Assembly (NCBI GenBank): GCA_964187785.1
Contig: OZ076409.1
Span: 41,914,001-41,978,000, forward strand
From: Amphiscolops sp. MND2022
Lineage: Eukaryota
Reading direction: 5' to 3'
DNA length: 64,000 nt
Position numbers and translations under genes: made by a program. Positions 14,710-63,900 of this stretch are shown here, in pieces. The notes under the pieces were generated by a model. It did not search any database, had not been told where the DNA came from, and worked only from the letters and a program-made list of their open reading frames with translations. The stretch's first letter is position 1, and every line of letters starts with the position of its first letter.

Positions 14710-14894
14710 ATAACAAGTCTTTTGTCCAGTCAACCAAGTCGTTGTCCCAACTCTGGTATGTGCTCTTTCTGTTGGGCGTTACATCAGGAGTAGCAAAAAT
14801 TTTTATAGTGGAAAATAAAATTTAGTTCCCAAAAGTTGCAAACAAATTGTCGAGAAACAATTGCCAAAACAGAAGGAATATTTTTACGACCCGG
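14220..14894 (+). repeat. ~675-bp direct repeat, copy 1 (copy 2 at 19268-19940)
   Basis: Collinear from CGTTATATCCGG to TTTTTACGACCYGG, roughly 80-85% identity by eye; includes the triple HINE end plus about 185 bp beyond it. Confidence 0.85.
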
Positions 14895-17800
14895 TGAACG
14901 TTATGAAGTAGGACTCCTCTGGGCCGATGACAACCCTAATCTGCCGAACAACTATTATTCTGCTTACCAACAGTTTTTGTCAATGGAGAGAAGATTAAGC
15001 AAGGATCCAGAGTTGAAAGAAGCTTACAAAGATACCATTGAGAAGGACTTGGAAAATCATTTTGTACGAAAACTGGAACAAGAAGAAGTTGTGAGTACAG
15101 AGAATGACATGCAATGGTATTTACCTCACCATCCTGTCAAGCATCCACACAAGCCAGGCAAGGTTCGAAGAGTTTGTAGTGCAGCTTCGAAGTTTAAAGG
15201 CGTTTCGCTGAATGACAAACTTCTCAGCGGACCTGATTTATTGCGCAATTTAGAGGGAATTGTTTTCAGGTTCAGAGAACATCTGATAGCAATCACTGCC
15301 GATATAGAGTCAATGTTTTTACAAGTAGCAGTTCCGAAAGAAGAATGTAGAGTTTTACGTTTTCTCTGGCGAGATAAACCAGATGATAACATTGAAATTT
15401 TCGAATATACCAGGCATGTGTTTGGAGAGAGTGCGGTAGAGAAAACAAAAGCGAATTTCCTGTAGCAGCAGCTACAATAGACAGAAACTTCTATATGGAC
15501 GACCTTGTTAAAAGTGTTGATACAACACAAGAGGCCATCGAATGTTATCAGCAGTTGATGGAAACACTGAAGCGCAGTGGCTTCACATTGAAGAAATGGG
15601 CCAGCAACTGTTCAGAAGTTTTGCAAAGAATCCCATTTGAAGATCGTTTAGAAGCAAACGAATTTACATTGAACGCAGAATCATCTCCTATTCTAGGTCT
15701 GGAGTGGATAATCGATAGAGATTGTTTACAAGTATGTCGAGGACCTAGCGAAGAATGTCCGCAAGATATCACTCAACGAGTAGTGCTATCTTTTGTTTCC
15801 TCAGTTTTTGATCCCATGGGAATTTTTGCACCTTTTACTATGCGTATGAGAATACTATTGAAAAGTATTTGGATTCGCTTTGGCCAATCAGGGGATGAGA
15901 AAATTGCAAATGATGATTAACAGGTATTCCTGGAATGGGTGACAGAAATGCAAACAATTAAAAACACCTCACTTCCTCGGAATTATTTTCCCGATAGTCC
16001 TAAAAATATTCAACTGCACATCTTCAGTGATGCATCTCTAGAAGCTATGTGCATCGTCGCTTACTTTCGAGCAGAAGTCAACGATGGAGTTGAAGTCTCT
16101 TTTGTTTTGGGCAAATGTAGAATAGCTCCCATCAAACAATTGTCTATACCTCGTTTAGAGCTTCAAGCAGCTGTGTATTCAGTAAGATTCAGAACCTTGA
16201 TTGCTCAAGAACATGACTTACAGATTGACAGTGTTACTCATTGGACTGATTCAGTCACTGTGCTTCAATGGTTACATTCAGCTGACAAAAGACAAAATGT
16301 TTTTGTAGCTAACAGAGCAGCTGAGATCTTGGAAAGTTCCACAATTGACGAATGGAAGCACGTTAAAGGTGAATTGAATCCATCAGATATTGGAACACGT
16401 GGAATTACTATACAGAAATTGACCGAAAGCGATTGGTTGTCTGGACCAATTTGGCTCAAAGACCACCCTGACGATTGGCCTTTGTCTCTACAACCAGTTA
16501 ACTTGGTGCCTGATGAAAATGCTGCAGTTGCAGTAATTGCGAGCACAAGCATGACTCAGGAGCCAATAGTTGATTGCAGCAGATTTAGTAGCTTTTCCAA
16601 ATGTGTGCGTGTTATAGCATTTTGTCTACGTGTGAAGTTTGGAAGTCAATCCAAAGTTTTACTTCCCGGTGAATTGAAACGGGCGGAAGAAAGGGTTTTC
16701 AAGCTAATTCAACAAGAAACCTTTCCGGTAGTTCATGAAGAAAAGCAAACGTTCGGTAAGACAAACAAAGTTGGGGATTTGGCAAAATTTTCTCCATTTT
16801 TTGACGACACTGGCATAATAAGAGTAGGAGGACGTATTAAACATGCAAATTTGAGCTTTGAACAACGCCATCCGATTCTCCTGTCCACGAAACACGATTT
16901 TGTTAAAGTTTTGTTACGTGATTTACATCTCGAACACAACCATGAAGGAGTAGAGTACATTAGAAGCGTAATCCAACAGAAGTTTTGGATTTTGGGATTA
17001 CGAAATGCTTTGAGGAGCATCAAAAGCAGCTGTGTATTCTGTCGCAAATTACGTGCGCCGATAAACCTTCCTCTCATGGCCGATTTACCTGCAAAGAAAC
17101 TCGATTATCAGTCTCACCCTTTTACTCATGTTGGTATAGATTATTTTGGGCCGTTTGAAGTTAAATTGTTACGAAGATCCATGAAACGTTGGTGTTGTTT
17201 ATTTACATGCTTAACTACCAGAGCAGTACACATCGAGGTAGTCCGAAGCCTTGATACAGACTCCTGCTTGGTAGCTATAAAGAGGTTTATTGCTAGACGT
17301 GGCAAGCCAACAACCTTTATAAGTGATAATGGTACTAACTTCGCAAGATAATGGATCTGCAAGAGAGTTGAAGGAGTACATCAACTCATGGAATCAAGAT
17401 CAAATAACGTCAGAGCTTGCTCAGAAGCACATTGTATGGAAGTTTAACCCTCCTGGTGCACCCCATTTTGGTGGTGTATGGGAGGGATTAGTAAGAAGTT
17501 GCAAAAAGGCAATGGTGGCTATATTGGGTAATCGATCTTTTACAGATGAAGTTTTATTGACAACTATGTGCTTAGTGGAACAAACATTAAATGCGCGTCC
17601 AATTACCCCAGCAAGCGATGATCCTTCAGATTTAGAGGCACTTACGCCCAATCATTTTGTTTTGGGACGAGCGAATGTTTGTATACCCTTTATTCCCAAT
17701 GCTGAAATTTATTTCAATCATCGGAAAATGTTCCGATCCTGCCAGGCCTATGCTGATATGATTTGGAAAAGGTGGGTTAGTGACTATCTTCAACAAAACA

Positions 17801-18621
17801 ATGTCAGAACCCAGTGGAACAAATCAGAGGCCAATGTTCAAGTTGGAGACTTGGTGTGGTTGGTTGATAACAATGTGAAAAGATCTCATTACAAGATGGC
17901 ACGAATCAAAGAAATATATCCAGCAAAAGATGGTGTAGTGAGATCAGTGCTCATCAAAACTCATGATGGCACCTTCAAACGACCTGTAGTACGCTTGGCG
18001 CCAGTTTTTAATGAGCGTTTTCAATCTGAAAACGGGGCCGGCATTGTTGGCGCCTCAAACGAGATGCAAAAAACTTAGCGAAAAAATAGGTCGATATAGC
18101 CTAACTAAAAGTGCTGTAAAATTGTGTATAAGTGTATTTGAGCGCTAGTTTTCACCCAATCCCAATTATTTGACCCCTAAAAGCTATCCAGACCAAAAAA
18201 GTGAAAATCGAAGAGAAAAGTTTTTCTTTTTGTGTTCTAGGCCCCATTTTTGATTCTTTTTCCAAAATTACTGTAAATTTGGACTTTATTCTTTGCTTAT
18301 TGTATTTAACTTCTTATGAACTCCATATTTGGGCTACATGAGTGTCCGTAGGACCCATGAGGACTGTTTGTGAACTTCGCTGATTATTTAACAGCAAATA
18401 ACACGTGTAGATCTATGCCTTATTCTTGCTTAAATGTATGTTTTTTATATATACTTTTACATGTTTTGGTGTATACCTCCAGTCCAGTTAAATAGTTTGT
18501 TTCTGCTTATTCTATATATCAAGGCGCTTTTATGGTGATGGTAAATTTGACTACAAACAGCCGCCATCAGGTATTTCCTGTATGCTAAAGTAACCAGAGT
18601 TAACTCCTACTAAGACCAACA
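14893..18621 (+). mobile_element. 5'-truncated, decayed Bel/Pao LTR retrotransposon (RT-RNaseH-integrase plus 3' LTR)
   Basis: GERYEVGLLW, WYLPHHPV, ADIESMF, FYMDD, FSDAS, IPRLEL, HLEHNH..CVFC, IDYFGP, SDNGTNF, PHFGGVWE. Deletion near 15425, in-frame stop at 15918-15920, GATAATGG duplication frameshift near 17345. No gag, protease or 5' LTR. Confidence 0.93.
18045..18621 (+). repeat. 3' LTR of Bel/Pao element 1
   Basis: Follows PPT-like AAACGGGGCCGGCA; bounded by inverted termini TGTTGG...CCAACA. No partner LTR to confirm the end. Confidence 0.65.
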
Positions 18622-19267: not shown

Positions 19268-19940
19268 CGTTATATCCGGTAAACTTTCTTTTGGGTTTTC
19301 GTTATATCCAGTTTGCGTTAAAACAGGTTTGCGAAAAAAATCAAAGGGCGACCGATTGAACTCAAAAGCTGGCGTATGTTTTCTGAAAGCATAACAAAAT
19401 CAACAAAGGGACCCTCTGGTAACATTTGAAATTTTGGGAAAACGTCTCACAGAGCCGAAAAGTACTCAAAGTGTCCCGTTTAGTTTCTTAGATGATATCA
19501 AAATGCGTTGGAAGCTTTTGCTCCAATATTTGTACATTTGCTAAAATTCATGAAAATTGTTAGAAGAGTGGATCACAAAGTGAACTAAGAAACTCTATTC
19601 ACTTATAAGGTCGGGTTTTGTTTCTTACAGAAAAAAACGCTGATAAAAAAACTACCCCGGTAATATTCGGGTATTTTTCGTTAGGACAAAAGGTGCTGTT
19701 TAAAAATATCCACTGTAAGAGTCGTGCACATTTCCGTAGGAAAATGCGCCGACTAAAAATAAGTTTTTTGTCCTTCAACATAGTCGTTCTCCCAACCCTG
19801 GTATGTGCTCCTTCTCCTGGGCGTTACAACAGGAGTGGCAAAAATTTTTATAGTGAAAAGTAAAATTCAGTTCCTGAAAGTTGCACAAAAATTGTAGAGA
19901 AACAATTGCCAAAAACAGTAGGAATATTTTTACGACCTGG
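19268..19940 (+). repeat. ~675-bp direct repeat, copy 2 (contains triple HINE terminus about 19595-19755)
   Basis: Collinear with 14220-14894. Confidence 0.85.
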
Positions 19941-36021: not shown

Positions 36022-39000
36022 GGTTATGGGGCCCAGTGAAAGACAATTAAGATAAACAGTTTCTTTTTCTTTGCGCTTGTTGTCGTGAAGATCTCTGGTT
36101 TGAGGAAACCGCAACTATTCTCAGTGTGATTGCATATGATAAATAGTTCCTAGTAGGGTGCGGGAATTCATTAGAACACACTTCACTTGAACGGACCTTC
36201 GTGAGCAAGACTGTCTCATGGCGGCAGGCTAATAAGCTGAAGTTAAATACTGTGTCCTTCAGTGAAGTTTAAAGTACACCAGGCGTTTCAAAAGTCAAAA
36301 TGGAAGGCTCAAATTTAAATCTCAAATGGCTCTGCTTCTCTGGCCTGACTCAGGACTACGCAACCTGGTGTGCTAGAATTCAAGTCTTTGCTCAAACGAA
36401 AGGCCTATTCGACACGCTCACTAGCGATGATCGACCACCAACCCAACCCGCGCAGCTTGGGAACGACTCAACTAATGAAGCCCGCGCTGCTCACGATGCA
36501 GCTCCGCTCCAGAAGTTCATATACGTGCTCTTGATGACATCGAGAACTCTAAAAACACAATGTGGTGTTACCTTGCGATGGTTCTCGATTCAACAAGCCT
36601 GATGTTGATCAGGCATGATTGTGTTGACTGCAATGGCCTCGTTGATGGTCAAAGGCATGGGGGCTTCTGCAAGAAAGGTTCCGAAGCAATGAAACAGTGA
36701 CTGTAGTCAGTGTGTTTAGGCAACTCGCTCGTTTGACGCTGAGAGAAGACGAGGCACTCCACAATCCTTTTATAAGAACCCAAGAGCTCTCAACTCGCAT
36801 GGAACAAGAAGCGGAACATCTATCGGAGCTACTGCTCGATTCAAGGGTACTCAGTGGCTTACCTGAGCGCTATGAGCACTTCATTGCGCACGAGAGCCTC
36901 AATCCTGCTGGTAGCTTCGTGGAGGTTCGAACACGGACGACCAACTACGGAGTGAGTTGTCTACACCGCGAATCTGTGGATGATGTGGATTCACATGTGG
37001 CGATGACGTCCAAAAAGGCCAGGCCTACGCACAAGCCAAGTAAATATAACGCAGCGCCTGAGTCAAGTTCTCGACAGCTAACATGCTACTGTTGCGGCAT
37101 GAAAGGCCACATGAAAGCAGAGTGTTATAAGAGAGAAGCTGAATGTACTTTTTTAAGCAAAACGGCCAATTTGAAAAACAAAAACGAGCTCAAAGGAGGC
37201 AAGCACGGAAGTTAAGCATCAAGTCTCAAGTTAAAAGAATCAAGCGAGGCAACAGTTGAAGACTTAGTAGTGGACTCATGAAGTACAGACCATGTAATAT
37301 TGAACAAAAACTGGTTCAAAAACTTGAAAGAAGTAGATACTACAGACACCAATCCTGAAGGGGTAACACAAAAGTCCTAGGAATAAGAGAAGTCGAGGTC
37401 CGAGCTCGAAACGTAAAACGAAAGATAAACCTTCAGTCTTTTGAAAAACCTTAGATGTGCCAGGATCCTGAACTAACTTGATCTCGGTATCCAGTATTGT
37501 AGACAATAGACACAACGTAGTTCATGACGCGAAAAACAGTTTCCTTTGCCTCAAAAGGAAAGGGAAATTCCTCATCAAAAGAAAAGGAAATCTTCTTCCT
37601 AAGTATGATCCCGAAGCAAGAAAACTTATTGTTAATTTGAGTGGGGGGTCAAACGAAGTACAACTATGGCACTAAGTTTCGGACATGTAAATTACAAAGA
37701 CCTGTAAAACTCTCTGTTGAAAAACCTGATAGAGGTAGATGCAAAATGCGAACCTTGCTGCTCAGCCAAAATAACCAAAACGCCTGTCCCAAAACAAAAA
37801 GACAATAAAGCCTCAAAACCTGGTGAAAGGGTTTGCAGCGATGTTGTTGGACCTATCACTCCATCAAGTAAAGGTGGGATTAGATACTTCGTCACGTTCA
37901 TTGGCGAATACAGTTCGCATTTTTTTGTGAAGTTCATGCGTCACAAAAATCAAGTTCTGCAAAAGTTCAAAGAGTACTTTGCTGAATGCGGTACGCAACG
38001 TTTACACCGGTCTAACAATGGAACCGAAAATAGTAACAAAAATATCACGAACTTTTGTACCAACATTAAAATCAAACGAGAATCAAACGGAACCCCGGAA
38101 CAAACTGGTGTCGCAGAGCGATACAATCAAACTGTTGTAGAGACCGATCGAAGTTTCTAATCGAATCAATACTTCCAAAATGCTACTGGCTCAGAGCTGT
38201 AGACACTGCAGCTTATGTAAGGAACCGGACCAAAAAAGACAAAGGAGAGAAGACTCCTTTCGAAAAACTTTGGGCAGAAAACCCAAACAGATCACTTGAA
38301 AGTTTTCGGTTGTCTAGCATACGTAAAAAATAGAAAGCGTCAAAATTTCACCCGGATGCACGGAAACTTGTTTTCCTTGGCCACAATGGCACCTGTACGG
38401 CCCACCTGTTGCAAGACTTTGAAACTAGAAAATTGAGACGAGCTCGCAACGTCGTGTTCATTGAAAACAGAGTAGTTGGATTCACCAACGAAACAAGAGA
38501 AGACGAAAATGATAATCTTCTCTTCGAGGTAACTTTCGACGATGAACTTGAGCAAAGCTTAATGAACTTAACACAAGTAAATAACAAGGGTCCTGAAGTT
38601 GAAGTGAAAGTTGAAAACGCCACCGATGAAAAATTTCATCGAGTAGCGAATTTGAAAATTATGTTGACACGACTACTACAAGAATTCCTAACTCAGAAGT
38701 TTATGTTCAGGTTGTAACGCCCAGTAGGTCAGATCAAGTATTCCCTGCAAGACCGTCAAGAATTGCTTTCCTACTGGAACGCTTCAAAGATCAAGTGATA
38801 TTCGGCAATTTCCTCAGGTCGTAAAACCAAAAATTAAAGAACCCAGTACATTGAAACTAACTAGACAATACTTGAAAATTGCTATCAGAGCGAAATTGTG
38901 TTAGATGAGAGACTGGACAAATACTATGAGATGAAAGATGCAAGAAGAGAAGCTAATGAGCTAAAGCGAGAGGAGAAGTCACGAAATCCTCCTCAAAGGT

Positions 39001-40577
39001 ATGGCCAAAGTTACAGCCATGACTCAACGTTATTTCCGAAAGAACCTGGAACCTACAATCAAGCAATAAGTTCTTGTGAAAGAGAGAATTGGCCGCAAGC
39101 AATGCAGGATGAGTTCAAGTCTTTGAACGAAACTAACACATGGACGTTAGTTGAGCCTCCAAAGAACAAAAATATAATCCCGTGAAAATTTGTTCTCAAA
39201 GTCAAAAGTAAAGCCGACGGAGACTTGAAAAAAACAAGGCGCGTTATGTAGCCGAAGGTTTTAAGCAAATTCAATGTTTAGACTATTCAGAAACAGTTGC
39301 TCCAACGAGCAAACAAGAAGTTTTTCGGATCATTCTTTCGTTAGCAGCGAAACAAGACTTTACGCTAAAGCAAATGGATGTTAAGTCAGCCTCCTTACAT
39401 CCAAAAATCGAAGAAGATATATACCTCGAGCCAGCCACTGGCTTTGAGGAAACAGGTAGCTCTGGAAACAAGCTTGTCTGTAAATTGAACAAATCAATCT
39501 ACGGACTGAAGCAGGCCGCTAAAAATTGGTATGAGGAGTTAGTGAACTGCCTTATACAGCAAAGTTTTTGCCGTAGCAAAAATGACTACTGTCTTTTATT
39601 AAAAAAACAAGACAAAAGAAAGTTGTACGTTCTAAGTTGGGTAGATAATTCAGTAATAGCAGGTAGCAACGATGAGGACGTAGAGGATGTAAAGAAATCT
39701 CTTGAAAAAAAATTCAAGATGAACAAACTTGAAAGGTTCTTAGGCATGCAAATAAGTTAAAGAAGAGACAAAATACGTGACCAGGGAACATATATTGAGA
39801 GCGCCATAGAGAAATTTAGCATGCAAAACCGCAATCCTTCGAAAATCCTGAGAACAATATGAGATTATTTAAGGCAACTGAGATTGAAATATTGGTCGAT
39901 GAGAGACTATACGGAAGTTTGGTAGGGTCCTTACTTTACATAGCCAAGCAAACAAGGCCAGATATAGTATGGATTGTCAATGTGGTCTCTCGCTTTATGG
40001 ACAAACGGACTAACACTCACTGGCTGACTGGTAAACGTGTCCTCCGCTATCTTCAAGCCACGAAGTCACTCAAAGTGGTCTACTCATGAGACAGTGACTT
40101 CATTCCATGATGAAAAACAGTCGACCACTGGCTACTTCTTCAAGCTTGGATTAGTTGGGGGAGCAGTAAAATGGCATTTCAAGAAGCAGCAGACAGTGAC
40201 ACTCTCATCATGCGAAGCCGAATATCAAGGTCTAGCTGATGCAGTGCAAGAAGCAACCGTCTCGCAATCACGCTTGCGTGAAATGGGTTATGAACAATCC
40301 CAGCCAACTATTATTAGGGAAGACAATCAGAGTTGCATCAAGCTGACAACTAACCCTGTCATGCACAAGCGATCAAAACAAATTAACACGAAGTTTCACT
40401 TCATACGGGAGAAAATTGATGACAATTCAATTCAACTAGTCTATACGCCAACTGATCAACTGGCAGCAGATCTGTTGACAAAGGCACTACCACAAGTGAA
40501 AGTGGAGCAACATCGAAAGCAATTTTTGGGTTGAATGCAAATTGTTCTTACGACATCCTGAACAATCTGAGTGGGGG

Positions 40578-41139
40578 TGGTTAGGAAAAGAGCTTGTCAA
40601 ATTTCTTGAGCTATAAAACTTAAACTTTCATATTATAATAGCTCAAAATCGAGAAGAAACAAACTAACATGATATGTTAGCGAACTTCAAGTTGTTCGAG
40701 CAATGAAATAAATGATGGTGCCAGCTGAATCTAATTATTTGTTGATGTTTAACCTTTCAAGTTCAACCTGTCGAAAGTATCGTAAATATCGATTATTTGA
40801 CTCCCAATTATCACTTCAAAATTTGTAAAATGAAACGATTCTGAAGTTCATGATTATTGCATTGAAGTATCACAATTTTTCATGATGGTGAGACGGAATA
40901 ATCCTTCCAGATTATTCGATTGTAAAAGTCAAGGAAATGGTCATCCGCGTTCTTCCAAAGTACCCCACCTTTAACAATGTTAATTTTTTTTGGAGTATAA
41001 ATACCCGGTGCTTCCCTTAATTTTTCACAGCGCTCATCCACTGAAACAGTCTTCCAAACAAATCTTCTAATTAACTGCTTTTTTTAATTGTCTTTCTGAA
41101 CGAAAGTGTTCACTGCTCAGCCAAGTCCTAGCCTAATCA
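40578..41139 (+). repeat. Copia 3' LTR
   Basis: Follows PPT; termini TGGTTAGG...CCTAATCA. Confidence 0.88.
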
Positions 41140-42104
41140 ATTAAAATTTGTTGAATGTGTGTTCGGATGGAATCACCTTGAAAAGTCGATGAAAACTAAA
41201 GAGAACAGATTGGTTCGCAAGTTAATTTAAGTCAAATTTAGTATGATAACTCATAGTTGAGTTAACTTAAAAGGGGATTTCTTAATCTTTACTCTTCCGT
41301 GAAATACCCGAATCTTAGTGAAGCGAAGCCGATATATTGTATAGTATCACTTTTGTTATAGCAAAGTCAAAATAATAAACAATTTGAGGTTTCGATGGAT
41401 CTCGGTCTTCTTTGATCCGTGACTTTCCGCGAACCAGACGTTGAAAGGTATACAACAGGGATTAACAAAAATTACAACCGAATTAAAAGAAACGTCACGC
41501 CCCTGGCAGACTTGTGTTGATAGTTTTTAGTTGACAGCAGATAAAAAAAGAAGATGCAAAAACATCCAAGATTTAATTTCATCGAATAAAATTACGGAAA
41601 TCTACCAAATTCTATGAAAATCAATTGCAACCCTTAAAAATTGGGTAAAGTGCGAGGGTCTTTTCTCCACAACCCAAAAGCACAACCTCTCCCAAGTCTG
41701 GTTGGGGGCCTAGAAGTTCCCAACTCCATCGGGTTCCACTGTCTTAAAGCACTCAATAAAAGCCGCATCAATTGTAAGCAATTGTTCTCGAATTCCCAAA
41801 AAGCACTGATTCAAATTTATATAAGAGAGTTACTTCAAAAAACATGGTTTCAAAAAACCAAAATTCGCTCACTTGACCCGCAATCTCTACTTTCTATAAA
41901 CTTGATGCAAAAAATGTATGAGCCCGAAGGTCCCCCTTGTGGATTTTTCACAATTGAAAAACGCTTCTCTCAAAGCAAGTGTAGAAACCACTTTTCAGAC
42001 CTTTCTGAACTTCTTGTTTTTCCAATTTGAAAAAAATCCATACTTGAAGTTTTTGTACAAGACAGTTTTTAATCTATGCAACGTAGGACATCTTGTTTCA
42101 TGGA

Positions 42105-43539
42105 TGTAACGGGGCTACAAACTACTCCGCTAGAAAACTAGAAAAGAACAATACAATAAATTAAACTGAAGTGACAGTAATCTAAATCAATTAAAGTGAC
42201 CATTTAAATGACATAGTCTCTGTTTATTATTGTTGATGAATAGTTGTAAATTAATACCAGCAATATTGTAGACCATCATACTGATGGCCCATCCAGTTTC
42301 ACCACAAAGTTTCTAGTGGTAACAAAGGGACCTAAATGAAACCACTACAAAGTGGTAAAAACAGTACTAACGAAATTAAATAAAGCTAACATCAGACTAA
42401 AATGCGAAAAATGCAAATTCGCGCAGAAAGAGATCGAATGGTTAGGATATAAACTAACCCAAACCGGAATCAGCCCGATAAATACGAAAATACAAGCAAT
42501 AACCGAAAAATTGAAACCGGAAGACCTAAATGAATTACGTTCATACCTGGGAGCCGTAAACCAGACGAACAGATACATACCAAATCTAGCTCAATTGTGC
42601 TTCAAATTAAGACCATCGCTAAAAAAGGATAAACCATGGAATTGGGACGAAAGCCATGAAGAAGCCTTCAAAGAAATAAATAAACAGGTACAAAAAGTAG
42701 TAGAGGTCGGACACTTCAAGAAAAGTGAAAACATCCGTATATTCTGTGACGATAGTAAAACAGGACTGGGGTTGTTTTGCAACAGCAAGATGAAATTGGA
42801 TGGAGACCAATTCACTTTGCATCCAGATTCTTAACACCATTAGAAGAAAATTATTCCATAAACGAATGGAACTACCTGCTATCGTATGGGCAATCGAACA
42901 TTTCAAGAACTACTTATATGGAATAAAATTCCAATAGTGTCAGATCACAAGGCACTGGCAACAGTGCTAAAGGGAAATAAAATTAAGAAAACTTACTCGA
43001 GTAGACTTACTCGATGGGTAGATCGACTACTACCATTCGATTTCGAAATATTTCACGCACCCGGAGTGGCAATTGGCATCGCAGACTATCTATCAAGGCA
43101 TCTCTCACAAATAGAAGGAGAAAGTGTGAAAGCAAAAGATCTATGTGACAACTGGTTTACAGTGAACCATGTAAGTGATGTAAATAGTATTTTAGCAGAG
43201 GAATTCAACCGACCAATCAGAGGACGACAGTGGTTGAAACTCAGACGCGACGACAAATGCAGCAAGAGTAAACAAACACACAAAACACATGAGAATAGAC
43301 AAAGAACGCGGTTGACCAAAATGGGACAGAACAACTCATCAAACGCGTTAGCAGATAACGACAACAACTTCGAACTGGAGATGAGCGACTTCCTTCATCA
43401 CCAAGATTCGGAGATAGTGGTAAGAGAACGAGCACGAGGCTCAAAACTAGAAGATACATACAAACCCATGAAGGGACGCGTAATCAACGAAACACAGCAC
43501 ACGCTGACAAAGAAGCCGGGAAATCAACACGAAGCAAAA
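42105..43539 (+). mobile_element. Truncated duplicate of the internally deleted Gypsy element (LTR 42105-42306 plus RT/RNase H fragment)
   Basis: Near-identical to 45549-46983; cut by the duplication junction. Confidence 0.9.
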
Positions 43540-44031
43540 GTGAGACAGTGACTTCATTCCATGATGAAAAACAGTCGACCACTGGCTACTTCTTCAAGCT
43601 TGGATTAGTTTGGGGAGCAGTAAAATGGCATTTCAAGAAGCAGCAGACAGTGACACTCTCATCATGCGAAGCCGAATATCAAGGTCTAGCTGATGCAGTG
43701 CAAGAAGCAACCGTCTCGCAATCACGCTTGCGTGAAATGGGTTATGAACAATCCCAGCCAACTATTATTAGGGAAGACAATCAGAGTTGCATCAAGCTGA
43801 CAACTAACCCTGTCATGCACAAGCGATCAAAACAAATTAACACGAAGTTTCACTTCATACGGGAGAAAATTGATGACAATTCAATTCAACTAGTCTATAC
43901 GCCAACTGATCAACTGGCAGCAGATCTGTTGACAAAGGCACTACCACAAGTGAAAGTGGAGCAACATCGAAAGCAATTTTTGGGTTGAATGCAAATTGTT
44001 CTTACGACATCCTGAACAATCTGAGTGGGGG

Positions 44032-44585
44032 TGGTTAGGAAAAGAGCTTGTCAAATTTCTTGAGCTATAAAACTTAAACTTTCATATTATAATAGCTCAA
44101 AATCGAGAAGAAACAAACTAACATGATATGTTAGCGAACTTCAAGTTGTTCGAGCAATGAAATAAATGATGGTGCCAGCTGAATCTAATTATTTGTTGAT
44201 GTTTAACCTTTCAAGTTCAACCTGTCGAAAGTATCGTAAATATCGATTATCCCAACTATCACTTCAAAATTGGAAAATGAAACGATTCTGAAGTTCATGA
44301 TTATTGCATTGAAGTATCACAATTTTTCATGATGGTGAGACGGAATAATCCTTCCAGATTATTCGATTGTAAAAGTCAAGGAAATGGTCATCCGCGTTCT
44401 TCCAAAGTACCCCACCTTTAACAATGTTAATTTTTTTGGAGTATAAATACCCGGTGCTTCCCTTAATTTTTCACAGCGCTCATCCACTGAAACAGCCTTC
44501 CAAACTAATCTTCTAATTAACTGCTTTTTCTAATTGTCTTTCTGAACGAAAGTGTTCACTGCTCAGCCAAGTCCTAGCCTAATCA
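44032..44585 (+). repeat. Duplicated Copia 3' LTR
   Basis: Copy of 40578-41139 within duplication unit 2. Confidence 0.88.
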
Positions 44586-45548
44586 ATTAAAATTTGTTGA
44601 ATGTGTGTTCGGATGGAATCACCTTGAAAAGTCGATAAAAACTAAAGAGAACAGATTGGTTCGCAAGTTAATTTAAGTCAAATTTAGTATGATAACATAG
44701 TTGAGTTAACTTAAAAGGGGATTTCTTAATCTTTACTCTTCCGTGAAATACCCGAATCTTAGTGAAGCGAAGCCGATATATTGTATAGTATCACTTTTGT
44801 TATAGCAAAGTCAAAATAATAAACAATTTGAGGTTTCGATGGATCTCGGTCTTCTTTGATCCGTGACTTTCCGCGAACCAGACGTTGAAAGGTATACAAC
44901 AGGGATTAACAAAAATTACAACCGAATTAAAAGAAACGTCACGCCCCTGGCAGACTTGTGTTGATAGTTTTTAGTTGACAGCAGATAAAAAAAGAAGATG
45001 CAAAAACATCCAAGATTTAATTTCATCGAATAAAATTACGGAAATCTACCAAATTCTATGAAAATCAATTGCAACCCTTAAAAATTGGGTAAAGTGCGAG
45101 GGTCTTTTCTCCACAACCCAAAAGCACAACCTCTCCCAAGTCTGGTTGGGGGCCTAGAAGTTCCCAACTCCATCGGGTTCCACTGTCTTAAGGCACTCAA
45201 TAAAAGCCGCATCAATTGTAAGCAATTGTTCTCGAATTCCCAAAAAGCACTGATTCAAATTAATATAAGAGAGTTACTTCAAAAAACATGGTTTCAAAAA
45301 ACAAAAATTCGCTCACTTGACCCGCAATCTCTACTTTCTATAAACTTGATGCAAAAAATGTATGAGCCCGAAGGTCCCCCTTGTGGATTTTTCACAATTG
45401 AAAAACGCTTATCTCAAAGCAAGTGTAGAAACCACTTTTCAGACCTTTCTGAACTTCTTGTTTTTCCACTTTGAAAAAAATCCATACTTGAAGTTTTTGT
45501 ACAAGACAGTTTTTAATCTATGCAACGTAGGACATCTTGTTTCATGGA

Positions 45549-47824
45549 TGTAACGGGGCTACAAACTACTCCGCTAGAAAACTAGAAAAGAACAATACAA
45601 TAAATTAAACTGAAGTGACAGTAATCTAAATCAATTAAAGTGACCATTTAAATGACATAGTCTCTGTTTATTATTGTTGATGAATAGTTGTAAATTAATA
45701 CCAGCAATATTGTAGACCATCATACTGATGGCCCATCCAGTTTCACCACAAAGTTTCTAGTGGTAACAAAGGGACCTAAATGAAACCACTACAAAGTGGT
45801 AAAAACAGTACTAACGAAATTAAATAAAGCTAACATCAGACTAAAATGCGAAAAATGCAAATTCGCGCAGAAAGAGATCGAATGGTTAGGATATAAACTA
45901 ACCCAAACCGGAATCAGCCCGATAAATACGAAAATACAAGCAATAACCGAAAAATTGAAACCGGAAGACCTAAAAGAATTACGTTCATACCTGGGAGCCG
46001 TAAACCAGACGAACAGATACATACCAAATCTAGCTCAATTGTGCTTCAAATTAAGACCATCGCTAAAAAAGGATAAACCATGGAATTGGGACGAAAGTCA
46101 TGAAGAAGCCTTCAAAGAAATAAATAAACAGGTACAAAAAGTAGTAGAGGTCGGACACTTCAAGAAAAGTGAAAACATCCGTATATTCTGTGACGATAGT
46201 AAAACAGGACTGGGGTTGTTTTGCAACAGCAAGATGAAATTGGATGGAGACCAATTCACTTTGCATCCAGATTCTTAACACCATTAGAAGAAAATTATTC
46301 CATAAACGAATGGAACTACCTGCTATCGTATGGGCAATCGAACATTTCAAGAACTACTTATATGGAATAAAATTCCAATAGTGTCAGATCACAAGGCACT
46401 GGCAACAGTGCTAAAGGGAAATAAAAGCAAGAAAACTTACTCGAGTAGACTTACTCGATGGGTAGATCGACTACTACCATTCGATTTCGAAATATTTCAC
46501 GCACCCGGAGTGGCAATTGGCATCGCAGACTATCTATCAAGGCATCTCTCACAAATAGAAGGAGAAAGTGTGAAAGCAAAAGATCTATGTGACAACTGGT
46601 TTACAGTGAACCATGTAAGTGATGTAAATAGTATTTTAGCAGAGGAATTCAACCGACCAATCAGAGGACGACAGTGGTTGAAACTCAGACGCGACGACAA
46701 ATGCAGCAAGAGTAAACAAACACACAAAACACATGAGAATAGACAAAGAACGCGGTTGACCAAAATGGGACAGAACAACTCATCAAACGCGTTAGCAGAT
46801 AACGACAACAACTTCGAACTGGAGATGAGCGACTTCCTTCATCACCAAGATTCGGAGATAGTGGTAAGAGAACGAGCACGAGGCTCAAAACTAGAAGATA
46901 CATACAAACCCATGAAGGGACGCGTAATCAACGAAACACAGCACACGCTGACAAAGAAGCCGGGAAATCAACACGAAGCAAAACCTTCAGCAAGCGAGAA
47001 ATAACAAAACCACAGCCACCATTGGTTCCACAAAGCAGCCAATCAGAGAACGTGAACACACCAAAACAAAAGAAAGAAGCCAAACAAATGAAAGAATACA
47101 AACAAACAAAAACCGATGAACAACAAAATCCAAAGAAAAGAAAAGAAAAGAAAAGAAAAGAAAAGAAAAGAGGATTCCGGCGTTATTCAAACGCCTCTCG
47201 AACTGGAGAGAATTACTGCATTCAGACAAAGAAGAAGAAAGCGAAAAACGACGACTCGAAAGAAAACAAACAAACCACCCAAAACAATCAAAAACGCCAA
47301 TAAAAGCGATCGTGAACTGGGAAAAGCAAAAACCAGCCAAAGAAGAACCAGAGAGTGAAACAGAAAAAAAACAGTACCACAAGCGATAAACGACCAAAAC
47401 GAAACCGCACTGCACCGGAATACTACGGGAACCCAGTCATGATCTGCGGAGTGGAAAATGCTAACGAAGCAGGAGAGAGAGATCGTTACAATCTCAAGTG
47501 ACGAAATTTATAAGGACCAAATCAAACACAACATAGACAAACAGAACCAGCCAACTGCCCAACGATTTTCAAGTTCAACCCAAACTCAAAGAGCTCGTCA
47601 AGAATTAAGAAGGAGGAATGTAACGGGGCTACAAACTACTCGGCTAGAAAACTAGAAAAGAACAATACAATTATTTTAACTGAAGTGGCAGTAATCTAAA
47701 TTAATTAAAGTGACCATATGAATGATATATATCGTCTTTGTTTATTGTTGTTGATGAATAGTTGTAAATTAATACCAGCAACATTGTAGACCATAATACT
47801 GATGGCCCATCCAGTTTCACCACA
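45549..47824 (+). mobile_element. Internally deleted Ty3/Gypsy LTR element (~2.3 kb)
   Basis: LTRs TGTAACGGGG...CACCACA at 45549-45750 and 47619-47824; PPT AAGAAGGAGGAA; flanks TGGA/TGGT (possible 4-bp TSD with one mismatch); interior holds only RT C-terminus (KCKFAQKEIEWLGY, LRSYLGAVN) and RNase H (SDHKAL, SRLTRWVDRL, ADYLSR); no PBS, gag, protease or integrase core. Confidence 0.9.
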
Positions 47825-54130: not shown

Positions 54131-54998
54131 AAGGGTACCCAAGGAGCCCATGGAGGGTAAATGGTACTCCCATTAAGTTTTTGTATAATTTACCGCATCT
54201 TCGAAGCTATTCGGGACCAAAGATTACCCATTAGGGATTTGTTCGGCACTGAACGACTTTTTTTGAAAACAATTTCGAAAATGACACGATTTTGCTTTTT
54301 GGTGTTTTCAGTTGGAGAAATGCGTTTTCCGTGCACGAAAAGCTCCTTCTATGTGTTTTCGGCACTCTTAAACTTGTGAGATTTTCCTTATGAAAGACAC
54401 TTGAGATGTTCCCCTTTTATTTTATAGTACGTTATGACAAAATGCTCCGGGGGATCCCCTCATTTTCAAAATTGCAACATTACATACAACTCACTTCTTT
54501 TTCAGAAAAAAAACAACTTCCTTTCTTGCTTTCGCTCTTAGATATTGTAACCTGTTATTCATACTCCAATTAATTTGTTCGGCCTGTTTGATAATTTAAT
54601 ATCGCAAAAAAAAACGATCTTTCCTGTTCAACTGGGAATTTTGACTTGGCCAAGTCATTATAAAAGGTCGAATTCATTCTTGGTAGGTACTGAACTTGGT
54701 AGGTACTGATAATGATGCAACATGAGGCAATAACATCTCTCTAATTGCAGATGATTAACACGAAAAGCATTAGCTTTGAAAAGTTTCTCTCTCTCGGGAA
54801 ATCACAGCCATGCAGTTATCCTTTTCTGCATTATACTTTAAGACATTTGATAATTTGATATGATTTTAATGAAGCCATGTACTGTTATTTTCTAGAATGT
54901 GAATGTGAAGAATCTTTTTAGAACGTTTAAAAATGGGCTGAATATTTTCTGGTTTCTGTTTTTTTTTCATGTTCAAAGATTTTCAAAGGAAAAGGAGG

Positions 54999-57900
54999 TG
55001 TACAGCAGCAAAACAGATCTGTACTAGCTTAGTTCTTTGTAAAAGAAACTATATTTTAATCATTTAACTTTACTTCCTGAAAGTTCCAACACCAATGACT
55101 AATAAATACGCGGGTTAAATCAACTTTAGATATTTCATGTGCAAAATAAGGAAATGAATCATCAATAATTTTCAAAAGTATTGAACATATCGCCCGTCTT
55201 GATTTTCTCTACGCAAATCAACTGAATTGCGAGTCAGTCGGTGGTAGGCAGTGGAAGTTTCCTCAGTTTATGAACGGCTCGATTATATTCTCCACTTCCT
55301 GTCTTTACTTTAACAACCCTGACAATGGAATCTCGCCCAACGTAAAGTTGCTTGACACGTCCTAGTGGCCATTGTAGAGGTGGAACATTATCATCAGTAA
55401 TGTACACTAAATCTCCAGGTTTTATATTGGGGACTTCATTCCTCCATTTGCTTCTTTCCTGGAGACTAGCGACGTACTCTTTACTCCATCGCTTCCAGAA
55501 ATGTGTCAATTTTGCTTGGATACAAGCCCATCTTTTTTTCGAATTGCAATGCGAACCTGAGATTGCATCCTGATTAACTTCTGCTGTTGATGGCAAGGCT
55601 TCCAACTTTGCACCCATACACAAATCTGCTGGAGTGAGTGGTAATTCATCTTTAGGATCATGACTCAGAAAACTGATGGGGCGAGAATTCAAAACCATTT
55701 CAATCTGACAGAAAAGTGTCTCCAGTTCTTCATAGTTTAGGACACATTTGCCCATGACACGTCGCAGGTGCTTTTTAGCGCTTTTTATGGCCGCTTCCCA
55801 CAAGCCACCGAAATGGGGAGCCCTGGGAGGAATGAACGTCCAAACAACTGACAATCCTGCTAAATAAGCCTGCAAGGAATCGCTATGATCGGCTACAAGT
55901 AGCCTTTGTAGTTCTTTCAGCTCTGCTTGCGCTCCAGTGAAGTTTGTCCCGTTATCGCTAAATATCCTCTTAGGACAGCCTCGGCGAGAAACAAATCTTC
56001 GTAGTGCAGCAATGAAGGCTTGCGAACTCAAATCGGACACTAACTCCAAATGCACAGCACGGCTAGCAAAACAAATGAAAAGTGCCATATAAACTTTAGC
56101 CTCCTTCGAGCCACCTGTTTTACACAAAAACGGTCCTCCAAAGTCAATGCCAATATCTTGAAAAGCTCGAAGTGGAACATCTATTCTTTCCTTTGGCAAA
56201 TCACCCATCAGAGGATTATTGGCTCTGGTTTGAAAGCGACAGCACGACACACAATTTCTAACTATTTTTCGTATCAGGTTTCTACAACTAGGAATCCAGT
56301 ATTTAGTTCTGACAAGAGCCAAAACTTGATTTGGTCCAGCATGCAATGTAGCATGGTGAGAATCCAGGAAAATAGAGCTAGCTAAATTGCTTTGTTGCGA
56401 AACGAGGCGTTGAAATTCCGCTTCATCGTTGAATTTACCATTAGCTAAGCGTCCTCCAACGCAGAGAACTCCATCGTTCAGAAAAGGATACAGCAATTGA
56501 ATTTTACTCGACTTTTTTACTTGTGAACTAGTTTGAAGCGTATTTATTTCATCAGAGTAGAATTTTTTCTGTTCCTGTATGAGGAGATTGCTCATGGCTT
56601 CAGTTAGCTCGCTGGCTGTAATGAAGTTAGGATAACTGGTTTTATATTTGCAGATGGAGATAAACCTCTTGACATAAGCAACAATTCTGAGAGCCTTTCT
56701 CAAGGAACGTTGTGCTGATAAATCAATAATATCTTCAGATTCTGCAACTTGAGACACATTAATCAAAAATTTTCGTTTCAGTTCCTCTTTCGTGGTAGGT
56801 AATTCCAATTTCTTCGGAAGTGCGCCGGTGATCAACCACTCAGGGCCTTGCCACCATAAACTTAATTGTTTCAGACTGGAAGGGTCTACTCCCCGGGATG
56901 CACAATCCGCAGAATTTTCATGAGAAAGTACATGGTTCCATCTCAAATTACTACTTTCCTGAATTTCTGCTACTCTATTAGCAACAAATGTAGACCAATT
57001 ACTTGCTTCTCGGTTCAGCCAACTGAGAACAATAGTAGAATCCGTCCACGCGAATGTCTTGTCAATATTTAATTCCATTTTTTGTAACGATTTAATCACT
57101 GATGATAAAAGTCGACATCCAAGTAGAGCAGCACAAAGCTCCAAACGAGGAATGGTTTTTGATTTTATCGAGGCTACTTTTGACTTTGCGACAAGTAAAG
57201 ATGACCTTCGCTCACCGTTGTTCTGCGAAACTACGAAGACACAAGCTGCATAGCCGAGTTCCGAAGCGTCACAAAATACATGGAGGTCTAAAATATCCAA
57301 TTGATCCTTTTTCAGAACGAATCTATCCAATTCGATCATTTCAATGCAACCGAGTCGTTCTAGCCAATCCACGTACTCCCGTGATAGGTCAACAGGCAAT
57401 ATTTGATCCCAATCTAGTTTTGCAATCCAAGCTTTCTGCATCAGGCACTTCAGGGAAATTATGACCGGTGTTAACCAACCAAGAGGGTCAAATGTTTGAG
57501 CAATATCACTCAGCATTTGGCGTTTGGTGATTGATTCTGCCTTCAAGGATTTCGATTTCGAAATAGTGAAGCGAAACTTATCCGACGAAGGGTTCCAAAC
57601 AATTCCTAATGTCGTTATTGTGTGTTCTTCGTCTAGAAATTTGAAGTTTTCGTTAGCCTCCCTGTACTCAGGTGGGAGACTCAGAACAAGTTCTGGATCA
57701 CTACTCGTCCATTTCCTCAAATCAAATTGAGCCTGCTTCAGAGTTAAAATTAGACCAGTTTGAAGTTCCTTTGCCTTTGATGCAGAACTAGTGCCAGTCA
57801 AAATATCATCGACGTAAAAATCACGTTGAAGTGCTTCTTTGACCTCTTTGGGAGTTGTTTCAAAGTTTCCACATTCTGATAAAGATCGAATGGAATGAAA

Positions 57901-59381
57901 AGATGAACTAGCCACACCATATGTTACGCGGGTCATTCTAAATGTCCCAATTTCCTTTTTGCCTGAGAATCGCCAAAGTATACGATGAAAATCTCGATCA
58001 CATTTCTGTAATTCGACTTGACGATACATTTTAGCTACGTCTGCGGACATCGCTACCTTGAAAAATCGGAATCGAATAAGAATATCGAATAAATCATCTT
58101 GAAATTCAGGGCCTACCATTAGGCAATCATTCAAAGAGAAACCACTTGTTGTTTTTGCACTTGCATCAAAAACAACTCGCAGTTTTGTTGTGGAACTGTC
58201 TTCCTTGAACACGCAATGATGAGGAAGATAAAAGTTCTGAGGGTTATTCAGTTCGCTATTTGGCACTTTCTCCATGTGTCCTAAGTCAATAAACTCGGTT
58301 ATGAAGTCTGAGTACCTTTTTTGCAACTCGGGATCACGTTTCAATTTTCTTTCCAAGTTTAAAAACCGTCGCATAGCAAGGTTTTTGCTCAAACCTAGTT
58401 TGAACTCTCCTCCCTTGAAAGGCATTCGAACGACAAATCGACCTTCGTGATTACGTTTTGTTGTGGACAAAAAATGTTCCTCACATTGGGTTTCTTCAAG
58501 AGTTAGCAGTTTGCGTGCAGGGACTTCTTCTAGCGCCCAAAACTTACTTAGAAGGGAATCAGTGGTCGGTGTCGTGATAACATGACAAGAAAAGTAATTG
58601 ACTTCAGCTGTCGTCGTTTTGATCGGACCAGACACAATCCAACCAAATATTGATTCCCGCAGGTAAACACCGTTATCTTTAATACGGTTGTCCAACATGA
58701 CTTCTTCAACGACGTCTGCTCCAAGCAAAACATCAATAGTGCTAGGCACGTTGAATTGGGGGTCGGCCATATTTAAATTTCGAATATGCCGCATTTGTGA
58801 AATGTCGATTTCATGTGATGGAATGTGGTTTGTTATCTTTGGTAAGATAAACATATTAACATCAATTGAGTCGTTGAGCTTTGTGGCTAGCAACTGATTG
58901 ACTCTTTGCGTGATACCAGCACCGAGTGGTGTCAACGTAGTGCTTGTCTTTTTCATAGGCAACATCAGTGCACGAGCTTTATCACTGGTGATGAAACTGG
59001 CTTGGGATCCGGAGTCCAGCATAGCGCGCAGATGAACTGGATTTCCTTTAGAATCTCGAATAGACACTAAAGCGGTTGCTAGAAGAACAGAAACAGGAGG
59101 AACTTGAGCACTACAATGGTTATTTGTCATTGTATTCATCTGATCACCTCGAGTCCAATCATTTTCCTTTTTGATTGTACATGCGGACCAAATGTACAGC
59201 AGCAAAACAGATCTGTACTAGCTTAGTTCTTTGTAAAAGAAACTATATTTTAATCATTTAACTTTACTTCCTGAAAGTTCCAACACCAATGACTAATAAA
59301 TACGCGGGTTAAATCAACTTTAGATATTTCATGTGCAAAATAAGGAAATGAATCATCAATAATTTTCAAAAGTATTGAACA
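54999..59381 (-). mobile_element. Very young Bel/Pao LTR retrotransposon lacking gag (4383 bp)
   Basis: Identical 189-bp LTRs (54999-55187, 59193-59381; TGTTCA...TGTACA on the minus strand); perfect 5-bp TSD GGAGG (54994-54998, 59382-59386); PBS-like TGGTCCGCA 2 nt after the 5' LTR; PPT-like AAGACGGGCGATA. Confidence 0.97.
55234..59139 (-). CDS. pol: Intact Bel/Pao Pol polyprotein (protease-RT-RNaseH-integrase), 1301 aa from the first in-frame ATG
   Basis: Uninterrupted ORF: LDSGSQ protease, YLPHH, RVVFDAS, YVDD, FCDAS, IPRLEL, HHATLH..CVSC, IDFGGP, SDNGTNF, GGLWE; no PHD, DUF1759-like or CCHC gag region. Confidence 0.95.
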   Translation of the reverse strand: MNTMTNNHCSAQVPPVSVLLATALVSIRDSKGNPVHLRAMLDSGSQASFITSDKARALMLPMKKTSTTLTPLGAGITQRVNQLLATKLNDSIDVNMFILPKITNHIPSHEIDISQMRHIRNLNMADPQFNVPSTIDVLLGADVVEEVMLDNRIKDNGVYLRESIFGWIVSGPIKTTTAEVNYFSCHVITTPTTDSLLSKFWALEEVPARKLLTLEETQCEEHFLSTTKRNHEGRFVVRMPFKGGEFKLGLSKNLAMRRFLNLERKLKRDPELQKRYSDFITEFIDLGHMEKVPNSELNNPQNFYLPHHCVFKEDSSTTKLRVVFDASAKTTSGFSLNDCLMVGPEFQDDLFDILIRFRFFKVAMSADVAKMYRQVELQKCDRDFHRILWRFSGKKEIGTFRMTRVTYGVASSSFHSIRSLSECGNFETTPKEVKEALQRDFYVDDILTGTSSASKAKELQTGLILTLKQAQFDLRKWTSSDPELVLSLPPEYREANENFKFLDEEHTITTLGIVWNPSSDKFRFTISKSKSLKAESITKRQMLSDIAQTFDPLGWLTPVIISLKCLMQKAWIAKLDWDQILPVDLSREYVDWLERLGCIEMIELDRFVLKKDQLDILDLHVFCDASELGYAACVFVVSQNNGERRSSLLVAKSKVASIKSKTIPRLELCAALLGCRLLSSVIKSLQKMELNIDKTFAWTDSTIVLSWLNREASNWSTFVANRVAEIQESSNLRWNHVLSHENSADCASRGVDPSSLKQLSLWWQGPEWLITGALPKKLELPTTKEELKRKFLINVSQVAESEDIIDLSAQRSLRKALRIVAYVKRFISICKYKTSYPNFITASELTEAMSNLLIQEQKKFYSDEINTLQTSSQVKKSSKIQLLYPFLNDGVLCVGGRLANGKFNDEAEFQRLVSQQSNLASSIFLDSHHATLHAGPNQVLALVRTKYWIPSCRNLIRKIVRNCVSCCRFQTRANNPLMGDLPKERIDVPLRAFQDIGIDFGGPFLCKTGGSKEAKVYMALFICFASRAVHLELVSDLSSQAFIAALRRFVSRRGCPKRIFSDNGTNFTGAQAELKELQRLLVADHSDSLQAYLAGLSVVWTFIPPRAPHFGGLWEAAIKSAKKHLRRVMGKCVLNYEELETLFCQIEMVLNSRPISFLSHDPKDELPLTPADLCMGAKLEALPSTAEVNQDAISGSHCNSKKRWACIQAKLTHFWKRWSKEYVASLQERSKWRNEVPNIKPGDLVYITDDNVPPLQWPLGRVKQLYVGRDSIVRVVKVKTGSGEYNRAVHKLRKLPLPTTD

Positions 59382-59555
59382 GGAGGCTCTCAAAAATTTA
59401 TGTGAAATTATAAATAAATTGTAAAAAACTGCCATTGTAATTTCAAAGTAATAACATAAAAACATCGCTTAGCTCTTCAACATATACATGTATACACGAT
59501 AAACTAGAAACTAAAACATCAAATTCATCGCAATTGATTTGAAAAAAAAATTTAG

Positions 59556-60986: not shown

Positions 60987-63900
60987 TGTTACCGATAATC
61001 ACGCGTTGGTGAAGATCTTCTATCTTTATTGGGTAATTGTATAACCGAGGGTATATGAAGTTAGTTATGATAAAAGAAACGATTGTTATATTCGGTTCAT
61101 ACCGGCTTGACCTCTACCGTAAATTCGGATACCAGCAGTCTAGAAGCTAGGAGTTGTTTACCAACAAACTCTAAATAGACTCTCATACCATACATACGTT
61201 TATACTTTTGTTTTGGTTATAATACAGTGATACAAACGTAGATCTATCTCTTTTAACAATTTCCTTTTCTCTTAACCTATATCCCTAGAATAGAACATGG
61301 CGCAGTCAGCCGATTTTTAAACTGTGTAAACCCTTCATAACGGAAAACAATGGCTGAAAGAAATACCGTCCCAAACCTAGAAACAAAAGCCACAGACGGA
61401 AACCCAGTATTTACACCGAGACAATGGCTTGAAAGGTTCCGGCAGTTTTGTAAACGGGAACACAAAATCGATATTACCCCATTACTGAAAGGAGAAAATA
61501 TTACGGACGCAAATTGGAACGGAAAAGAACAAGCCGTACAAGAAGATTTCATATGGGGAGTGGGACCGGAAGCACTATACCAAATAACCAGGGCCGAATA
61601 TAAAACGGAACCCGACAGTATAAAAGTGAAGGACCTAATCCGGTTATTCACCGAATTCTACATGCCGAAACGAAACACTTACCACAACCGAGGCGACTTC
61701 TTTTGGGCAAAGCAAACCGAAGATGAGACACCGGATGAATTCTGGAGACGACTAATTGAAATCGAAAAAGAGTGTAACTTTAATGCAATATCAGCCGAAG
61801 AATTGTTGATATCAAAATACATGACCGCAATCACCGATAAAAAACTACGGGACAAAATAATGAAAGAAAAAACGCTGGAACTGAAGAAAATAATCGAACT
61901 GATCAAACAAAATACATACGAAAAAAAGAATAAAAAGAACACAATACCGGAAGTTTTGATATCAACAAAAGAAAAACACATGATAAAGGAAGAACCAATA
62001 CAAAGAATGGAACGATTCGGTAACAGACCGAAAAATAAAAACAACGGAAACCGTACATGCAGCTTTTGCAATGCTCCAAACTGGACACCGATGCACAAAT
62101 GTCCCGCACTAGAAGCGAACTGCAACAAATGCGGAAAGAAGGGACATTACGCAAAAGCATGCAGACTGAAATTCAATAACAACCGAACAGTGAAAAGACT
62201 AACCGAAGAAGAAATGAACGAACCGGACGAATCAACAAGCGAATCAGACGAGAGTATACACCACATAAAAGAAATCAAGAAGATAAATGAAATGAACAAA
62301 CACTTTACAGCGGTAGTACGAGTTAACGGGGTAAAGAAAGAATTCATAATTGACACCGGATCACCCATTTCAATTATGCCACCCGACGAAAGAATTATAA
62401 AATCAACCGAAATTCAGAAAATAACCAACCGATACCAAGATGTGAACAAAAACGAAGTGAAATTCCGGGGAAAAATTCCGGTAAACATCGAACATGAAAA
62501 TAATAATCAAAAAATGGAAATCCTAATAACCGAGAGAACAGATATAACACCATTACTCGGTATGGACTGGATGAAGAAATTCAAACTGACAATCAGAAGA
62601 ATACAATTAGCCGAGAACAACCAATCAGAACGCGAGAAAATATTTAACAAATTTCCGGATCTATTTGAGAACAACGACACAATCAAAGATACCGAAATAA
62701 ATATCCAATTAAAACCTGGACACTACCCGGTAAAACAAAAAGCTAGACCGATACCACTACATCTACAGGAAGATGTTGGAAGGGAATTAGAAAAAGTAAT
62801 AAAATCCGGACATTTGGAAAAAGTAAAAGACGTAGACGAAGATTGCTTCGTATCACCGGTGGTAATAACCGTGAAGAACGATAAATCGGTGAAAATAGCT
62901 CTGGACTCACGCAAATTAAATGACAGCTGTATTAAAATGAGACCGCACATGCCGAAAATGGAAGAACTGTTAAACCAAATTTCGGTAGAAATAACACGTG
63001 ACCGAACACTACAACTATTCATGTCAAAGATCGACTTGGATTATGCGTACGGCCAAATGAAATTGTCCGAAGAAACAAGCAGACAATGCGTATTCACATT
63101 AACCGGAGGAAAATTCAGTGGATACTACCGGTTTAAAAAAGGTTTCTACGGCCTGTACACCGGCTTGGCTAGACGATATTATCGTGGTAACCCGAGGAAA
63201 CAAACAAGACCACGAGAAAAAGTTATTCGAAATACTGATTAAACTAGAAAAAGCCGGGTACCGAGCAAGTAAAAAGAAATCCGAATTCTTCATGAACCGC
63301 ACAAAATGGCTGGGACACGAAATTGATGAAAACGGAATTAAACCGAACGAAGAAAAAGTGGAAGCAATATCAAAATTAAAACCACCGGAAAATACAAAAG
63401 AACTAAAATCATTTCTCGGAGCAATACAATACATGGCAAAATATCTACCAAAACTGTCGGAGCGGGACGATAGATTGAGAAAATTACTCTAAAAGAATGA
63501 ACAGTGGAAATGGGGACCGGAACAAGAAACGGATTTTAACCGAATAAAACAAATGCTTACCGAAGGCCCATGCTCGGCACACTACGCAAAAGAAAAAGAC
63601 AATATAGTGACAACCGACGCCAACACAACCGGGCTGGGAATAACACTCTGGCAAAAACAAAATGACGGAAATACAAAACCGATAGCGTACGGAAGCAGAT
63701 ATTTGAATGAAACCGAAAAGAAATTATCAGAGGGCGAATTGGAATTATTGGCGGTAGTGTGGGGATTAGAGAAACTCCGATTTTATCTATACGGGAAGAA
63801 AGTTCACCTATACACCGACCACCAAGCATTGGAACCACTCATAAAAAGAAACCGAAGTAATAAACAATACAGCGCGAGATTGACAAGGTGGTTAGACCGC

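Follow-up and report, generated by a model that had tools for sequence, protein, structure and literature searches.

A gag-less Bel/Pao element in Amphiscolops sp. is probably one copy of a gag-pol family that suffered an internal deletion

Introduction

Reverse transcription and DNA repair commonly give rise to internally deleted copies of LTR retrotransposons. Elements of the Belpaoviridae have LTRs of the form TG...CA, a 5-bp target-site duplication (TSD) and pol domains in the order protease, reverse transcriptase (RT), RNase H, and integrase, preceded by a gag with a DUF1759 domain and a triple Cys-His box. Their primer-binding site (PBS) is 18 nt long and complementary to tRNA-Arg or tRNA-Gly, and their LTRs range from 0.2 to 1.2 kb (PMC8742986).

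Elements without a functional gag of their own are known from the Copia group in plants. Tos17 of rice lacks gag entirely, keeps a long pol ORF together with its LTRs, PBS, and polypurine tract (PPT), and transposes; its authors found no Tos17 gag in rice, and the partner they propose is 64% alike in protein (PMC3977881). BARE2 of barley has a conserved small deletion and makes no Gag, and a downstream AUG might allow translation of pol; it retains the signals for packaging, is packaged, and is more abundant than BARE1 (PMC3735527). Among defective HIV-1 proviruses, one described deletion class joins the end of the PBS to a downstream position with a tRNA insert at the junction (PMC12657518). 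According to PMC11117352, fish BEL-PAO families are often without a gag detectable by HMM search, which may be a detection limit. Our literature search, which was incomplete in coverage, turned up neither a gag-less Bel/Pao family that transposes nor a Tos17-like state in Bel/Pao.

Here, we analyzed a stretch of 64,000 nucleotides from Amphiscolops sp. MND2022 (assembly GCA_964187785.1, OZ076409.1, positions 41,914,001 to 41,978,000), referred to as the window. A sequence-only reading had described in it a Bel/Pao element without gag and had proposed a Gag-parasitic family.

Results

The element has intact ends and an intact pol but no gag

The element spans positions 54999–59381 on the minus strand (4383 nt; Table 1). 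As the sequence-only reading had reported, its 189-nt LTRs differ at no position and GGAGG is found on both flanks. The repeat extends no further on either side, and this 5-mer would occur by chance at a given site with a probability of about 3e-4. On the minus strand, an open frame covers 1327 codons (59217–55234), and its first in-frame ATG, at 59139, lies 53 nt past the LTR. The claim of an unbroken 1301-aa frame running from protease to integrase was confirmed by translation, by Pfam, and by the presence of all 14 catalytic and zinc-binding residues that were looked for. Pfam domains in pol are a protease (weak), Peptidase_A17, an integrase zinc finger, rve, and DUF5641. The start codon had been placed correctly, at about 50 nt past the 5' LTR, and the statement that only a few residues precede the protease needed correction, the protease Asp being 41 residues after the pol Met.

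These features (LTR ends, TSD length, domain order, DSG, YVDD, DAS, long D-D-E spacing, Peptidase_A17, and DUF5641) are those of the Belpaoviridae, and the pol motifs match the Bel/Pao hallmarks given in PMC554778, save for the missing gag. A Pfam search of the element found no DUF1759, no zinc knuckle, and no gag family; the gag regions of the relatives P0033, P0001, and P0005 had no tblastn match in the 64-kb window at E ≤ 1; and the triple Cys-His box of Bel/Pao Gag is absent from this copy. The earlier description of the element as gag-less thus stands.

Table 1. Coordinates of the features of the element and its flanks within the window.
Feature	Position	Strand	Basis
TSD copy 1, GGAGG on +	59382..59386	.	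sequence comparison
5' LTR, 189 nt, TG...CA, identical to 3' LTR	59193..59381	-	repeat comparison
PBS-like stretch, 18 nt, starts TGG, 2 nt past LTR	59173..59190	-	sequence, 18-nt PBS per PMC8742986
Deletion junction, leader joined to codon matching P0033 residue 414; exact base uncertain (A-run)	59172..59173	-	protein alignment
Gag-protease linker remnant of 11 in-frame codons preceding the ATG	59140..59172	-	protein alignment
pol ORF, 1301 aa, from inherited internal Met (= P0033 residue 425), 21 private aa changes	55234..59139	-	translation, protein alignment
Protease active-site DSG	59008..59016	-	motif
RT catalytic core: first Asp 58041; YVDD with first Asp 57810	57805..58041	-	motif
RNase H acidic residues 57270, 57141, 57042, 56907; overlaps Pfam Peptidase_A17	56905..57270	-	motif, Pfam
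Integrase: HHCC zinc finger 56358-56244; D-D-E 56145, 55956, 55797	55795..56358	-	motif
DUF5641, Bel/Pao integrase C-terminal domain	55258..55536	-	Pfam
PPT-like purine-rich stretch, interrupted by pyrimidines, before 3' LTR	55188..55210	-	direct reading
3' LTR, 189 nt	54999..55187	-	repeat comparison
TSD copy 2, GGAGG on +	54994..54998	.	sequence comparison

Close siblings carry gag

The homologue search yielded a sibling protein, P0033, that is 96% identical to the window protein over 491 residues and whose first 413 residues contain DUF1759 and a triple Cys-His box (residues 335, 368, and 387). Since Gag is missing here and present in this sibling, the element counts as a defective member of a Bel/Pao family rather than a complete element.

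Two clusters at 90% identity hold 29 proteins, namely, the window's own and 28 pieces on 10 other contigs, distinguished by their length; contigs with family members may not all belong to one assembly, nor to the window's own. The search for gag-bearing relatives that the sequence-only reading had suggested was done on proteins: at ≥90% identity, gag pieces are present on 10/10 of the other contigs, and on the eight that have ORFs spanning the junction, all of these ORFs run into gag. The contig pairs 747260/182027 and 471166/134318 have breaks in common and probably represent alleles or duplicates, which would leave about eight independent sibling insertions. When shorter proteins were searched, older pol pieces with 75 to 88% identity emerged on 14 contigs. 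For 11 of these, gag pieces are present on a contig of equal length; the other three, with no gag pieces among those listed, are uninformative, as their ORFs start too far downstream. In P0033 and in a second sibling, P0132, the frame is open from the start of gag into RT and pol is broken. No unbroken full-length gag-pol at ≥90% identity was found in the homologue search or the 90% clusters, and the full-length relatives, P0001 to P0005, are unnamed and 56 to 62% identical.

The junction joins the leader to the gag–protease linker

Identity between the window and P0033 begins sharply at P0033 residue 414, which places the junction between 59173 and 59172. Relative to P0033, 413 gag codons (~1.24 kb) and some leader are missing; the leader that is kept consists of the 20 nt between LTR and junction, that is, 2 nt plus the 18-nt PBS-like stretch. 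The pol Met corresponds to Met 425 of P0033 and is found in 8/8 junction-spanning siblings. Judged from this alignment, the ATG of pol goes back to an internal Met of the gag–protease linker and is not a new start codon, and nothing suggests that this copy has adapted to express pol alone. Between the LTR and the pol ATG, there are two out-of-frame ATGs (59182 and 59162). A spliced origin of the junction appears unlikely, the sibling residues before it suggesting a purine-rich context. A two-ORF layout with gag elsewhere was rejected, as the siblings have one continuous frame and the window contains no gag.

The gag-less form is represented by one copy

The exact 1301-aa protein occurs on one contig. 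Neither a source nor a daughter copy was found among 451 proteins, of which none with more than 101 aligned residues exceeds 97.3% identity to the window pol. The best long matches (96.6–97.3%) come from gag-bearing contigs, and the nearest copy is 2.8% different. The window pol has 21 private residues; 20 of them occur in none of the 40 proteins with ≥75% identity, and the remaining site is common to three old copies. A Gag-parasitic family of the Tos17 or BARE2 type would be expected to have several copies with one common gag lesion; in this protein-level test, the lesion was seen on one contig. As far as the protein data show, the other family members carry gag and the junction is unique, which was the outcome that the sequence-only reading had named as speaking for a one-off deletion or an assembly gap.

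Other proteins that start close to the protease were considered as a parallel pol-only lineage and set aside: among the top matches covering the start of the protease, 5 of 114 have fewer than 100 residues upstream, but these are 38 to 42% identical. In the cluster-mates that were checked (7 of 21 in the cluster of P0023 and 2 of 59 in that of P0019), gag-bearing members are present.

Amino acid changes and age of the copy

Across 1312 positions, the private changes of the window pol number 21 (1.6%); in unpaired sibling contigs, the corresponding values are 1.2 to 3.0%. To locate these changes, we used 461 invariant columns, defined as unchanged in six relatives of 56 to 62% identity. Seven of the 21 private changes fall in such columns, compared with a 35% background (Fisher p = 1.0, with small numbers). 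Family sites that split groups served as a control expected to reflect active lineages; here, 1 of 15 falls in an invariant column (p = 0.026 versus background). Compared directly, 7/21 and 1/15 do not differ significantly (p = 0.10). A distance tree places the window protein in a star with gag-bearing copies, on a terminal branch of 1.7% versus 1.2 to 2.5% for its four nearest sisters; the neighbor-joining root, based on a 62% outgroup, was unreliable and left unused. At the amino acid level, private changes thus occur at the background rate, with no sign of purifying selection on the window pol's own branch, and we infer neutral decay.

The LTRs and the reading frame give a somewhat different impression. 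At 0.73% per missense site, about 2.8 LTR differences would be expected, whereas none is observed (P ~ 0.06; 0.15–0.27 if the LTR rate is half to two-thirds of the pol rate). The pol span is broken one or more times on all 10 sibling contigs (mean of 2.0 or more), and this copy has no such break (P(0) ~ 0.14, or 0.26 counting nonsense changes alone), so that its pol is the only unbroken one among 11 contigs. Identical LTRs and an open frame make this copy look somewhat younger than its amino acid changes and its sisters would suggest. This apparent youth arises partly because the copy was singled out for those very features, from some 25 contigs with family pieces, and it would also follow from a later jump of an unseen decayed template.

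Discussion

We consider the element to be one copy, with an internal deletion, of a Bel/Pao family whose gag and pol form one ORF, with a probability of about 0.8. The LTRs and the 5-bp TSD show integration by the family's normal machinery, and branch lengths suggest that this copy and several gag-bearing sisters were integrated in one wave. A single event would have removed gag and created the join, visible at the protein level, between leader and gag–protease linker. Such a copy would be unable to build particles and could move only in the particle of another copy; it would have decayed neutrally since, its frame remaining open by chance. The proposal of a one-off deletion, which the sequence-only reading had offered beside its headline, is the one that these data support. 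This is a known kind of defective copy, in an unnamed animal Bel/Pao family.

The deletion may have arisen by faulty strand transfer during reverse transcription, so that the copy was born gag-less, and we give this slightly better than even odds; deletion after insertion falls a little short of an even chance. The former is favored because the break is so close to the LTR, at the edge of the PBS-like stretch, where a misdirected plus-strand transfer would leave it. Deletions by aberrant second-strand transfer are described for HIV-1 proviruses in PMC12657518; these defective proviruses belong to a different family from this element and share with it full LTRs around one large internal deletion.

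As an alternative, an older, decayed gag-less copy could have been transcribed and moved once more with Gag supplied in trans, which we regard as unlikely. Such a jump resets the LTRs to identity and would fit young LTRs flanking a pol that carries 21 private changes, the low probability of identical LTRs under equal age, and the survival of both the catalytic residues and the frame; the siblings with open gag, P0033 and P0132, could supply the protein. However, the template should yield a near-identical protein, of which there is none among the 451, an unbroken gag-pol of the close family was not seen among the proteins searched, and the leader, the usual location of packaging signals, appears to be mostly gone. 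Slightly more doubtful still is the wider idea that the deleted form has moved at least once with sibling Gag and that the family might survive as a complementary pair of gag donor (P0033, P0132) and pol donor. If true, this pair would amount to an animal Bel/Pao element at an early two-component stage, similar to Tos17.

That an assembly error dropped the gag segment is very unlikely. The junction does lie at an A-run near the end of a repeat; against this, the window is free of N, the element lies inside a contig of 199,224 bases and has clean LTRs, a clean TSD, and a clean 3.9-kb frame, and its junction falls outside the LTR repeat. Least credible is a stable multicopy pol-only lineage that parasitizes Gag as Tos17 and BARE2 do: the clean loss of gag, the retained LTRs, PBS-like and PPT-like stretches, and the open pol are what Tos17 would lead one to expect, but there is one copy, nested among gag-bearing sisters on a branch no longer than theirs, with no sign of purifying selection at the amino acid level, and with no new start codon. 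The headline of a Gag-parasitic family is accordingly unsupported.

The comparison with the plant elements points the same way. Like Tos17, the element lacks gag wholly and keeps a long pol ORF with LTRs and PBS- and PPT-like stretches; unlike Tos17, it has gag-bearing copies of its own family that are 94 to 97% alike, and nothing shows movement (PMC3977881). Like BARE2, it makes no Gag and has a downstream AUG that might allow translation of pol; unlike BARE2, it is a lone copy that lacks gag and, apparently, most of the leader (PMC3735527). As it stands, the element matters little, apart from illustrating neatly how a copy may have been “born gag-less”. Were the junction to sit at several insertion sites, Tos17 and BARE2 would have an animal counterpart in Bel/Pao, in which the onset of Gag parasitism could be studied.

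Minor features of the element

No tRNA genes were found within the 64-kb window. The LTR end plus leader folds no better than shuffled sequences (z = −0.56), and a 7-bp hairpin around the PBS-like stretch, although the minimum-energy form, is not significant (z = −0.24). A 21-nt LTR pattern had no matches in viral contigs, and its single match, in a metagenome locus, was attributed to chance, only those 21 nt being common to the two; a search for related loci in viral contigs and prokaryote genomes found no relative. At 189 nt, the LTRs are slightly below the range given in PMC8742986. The integrase D-D-E spacing is D(62)D(52)E, compared with D(62)D(49)E in Sinbad (PMC554778).

Coding integrity of the element and its siblings

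Among the family members seen, only the gag-less Bel/Pao element of the window has an unbroken pol. No unbroken full-length gag-pol was found among family members at least 90% identical to its protein (the sibling proteins P0033, which bears gag, and P0121–P0148). In P0033 and P0132, the frame is open from the start of gag to the RT. The sibling proteins carry several breaks at recurrent sites, near residues 502 and 1228 in the numbering of the element's own pol frame.

The last bases of the element's LTR and its leader could pair into a 7-bp hairpin whose loop contains the PBS-like stretch; this hairpin folds no better than shuffled sequences.

Other repeats and retroelements in the window

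The window holds a second, older Bel/Pao pol fragment, which is frameshifted, is 31 to 36% identical to the element's pol, and has neither gag nor protease. The direct repeat flanking this fragment is probably not an LTR pair, since it overlaps pol-like sequence and has no clear TG...CA ends.

Features of the window
Feature	Position	Strand	Description
Inverted repeat	2109–2282		86 bp; arms 99% complementary; 2-nt loop
Direct repeat	14219–14893 and 19268–19937		675 bp; 82% identity
Bel/Pao fragment	14746–18066	+	
Tandem array	22.8–33.2 kb		~460-bp units; ~233-bp subunits; A-rich; >10 kb
Copia-type element	35.5–39.8 kb	+	decayed
Retrotran_gag_2	36646–37215	+	in Copia-type element
rve	37708–38160	+	in Copia-type element
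RVT_2	39212–39760	+	in Copia-type element
Tandem duplication	40087–43539 and 43541–46983		3.45 kb; 99.2% identity
Leader hairpin	59176–59198	−	
ORF	61341–63242	+	633 aa

The tandem array is satellite-like. The Copia-type element may have its LTRs in the repeats found at 35515 and 40632. The tandem duplication contains Gypsy-type RT and RNase H fragments. The ORF encodes a gag-like region, a CCHC-like knuckle, an aspartyl protease (Pfam) and what looks like the first part of a Gypsy-type RT, and stops early.
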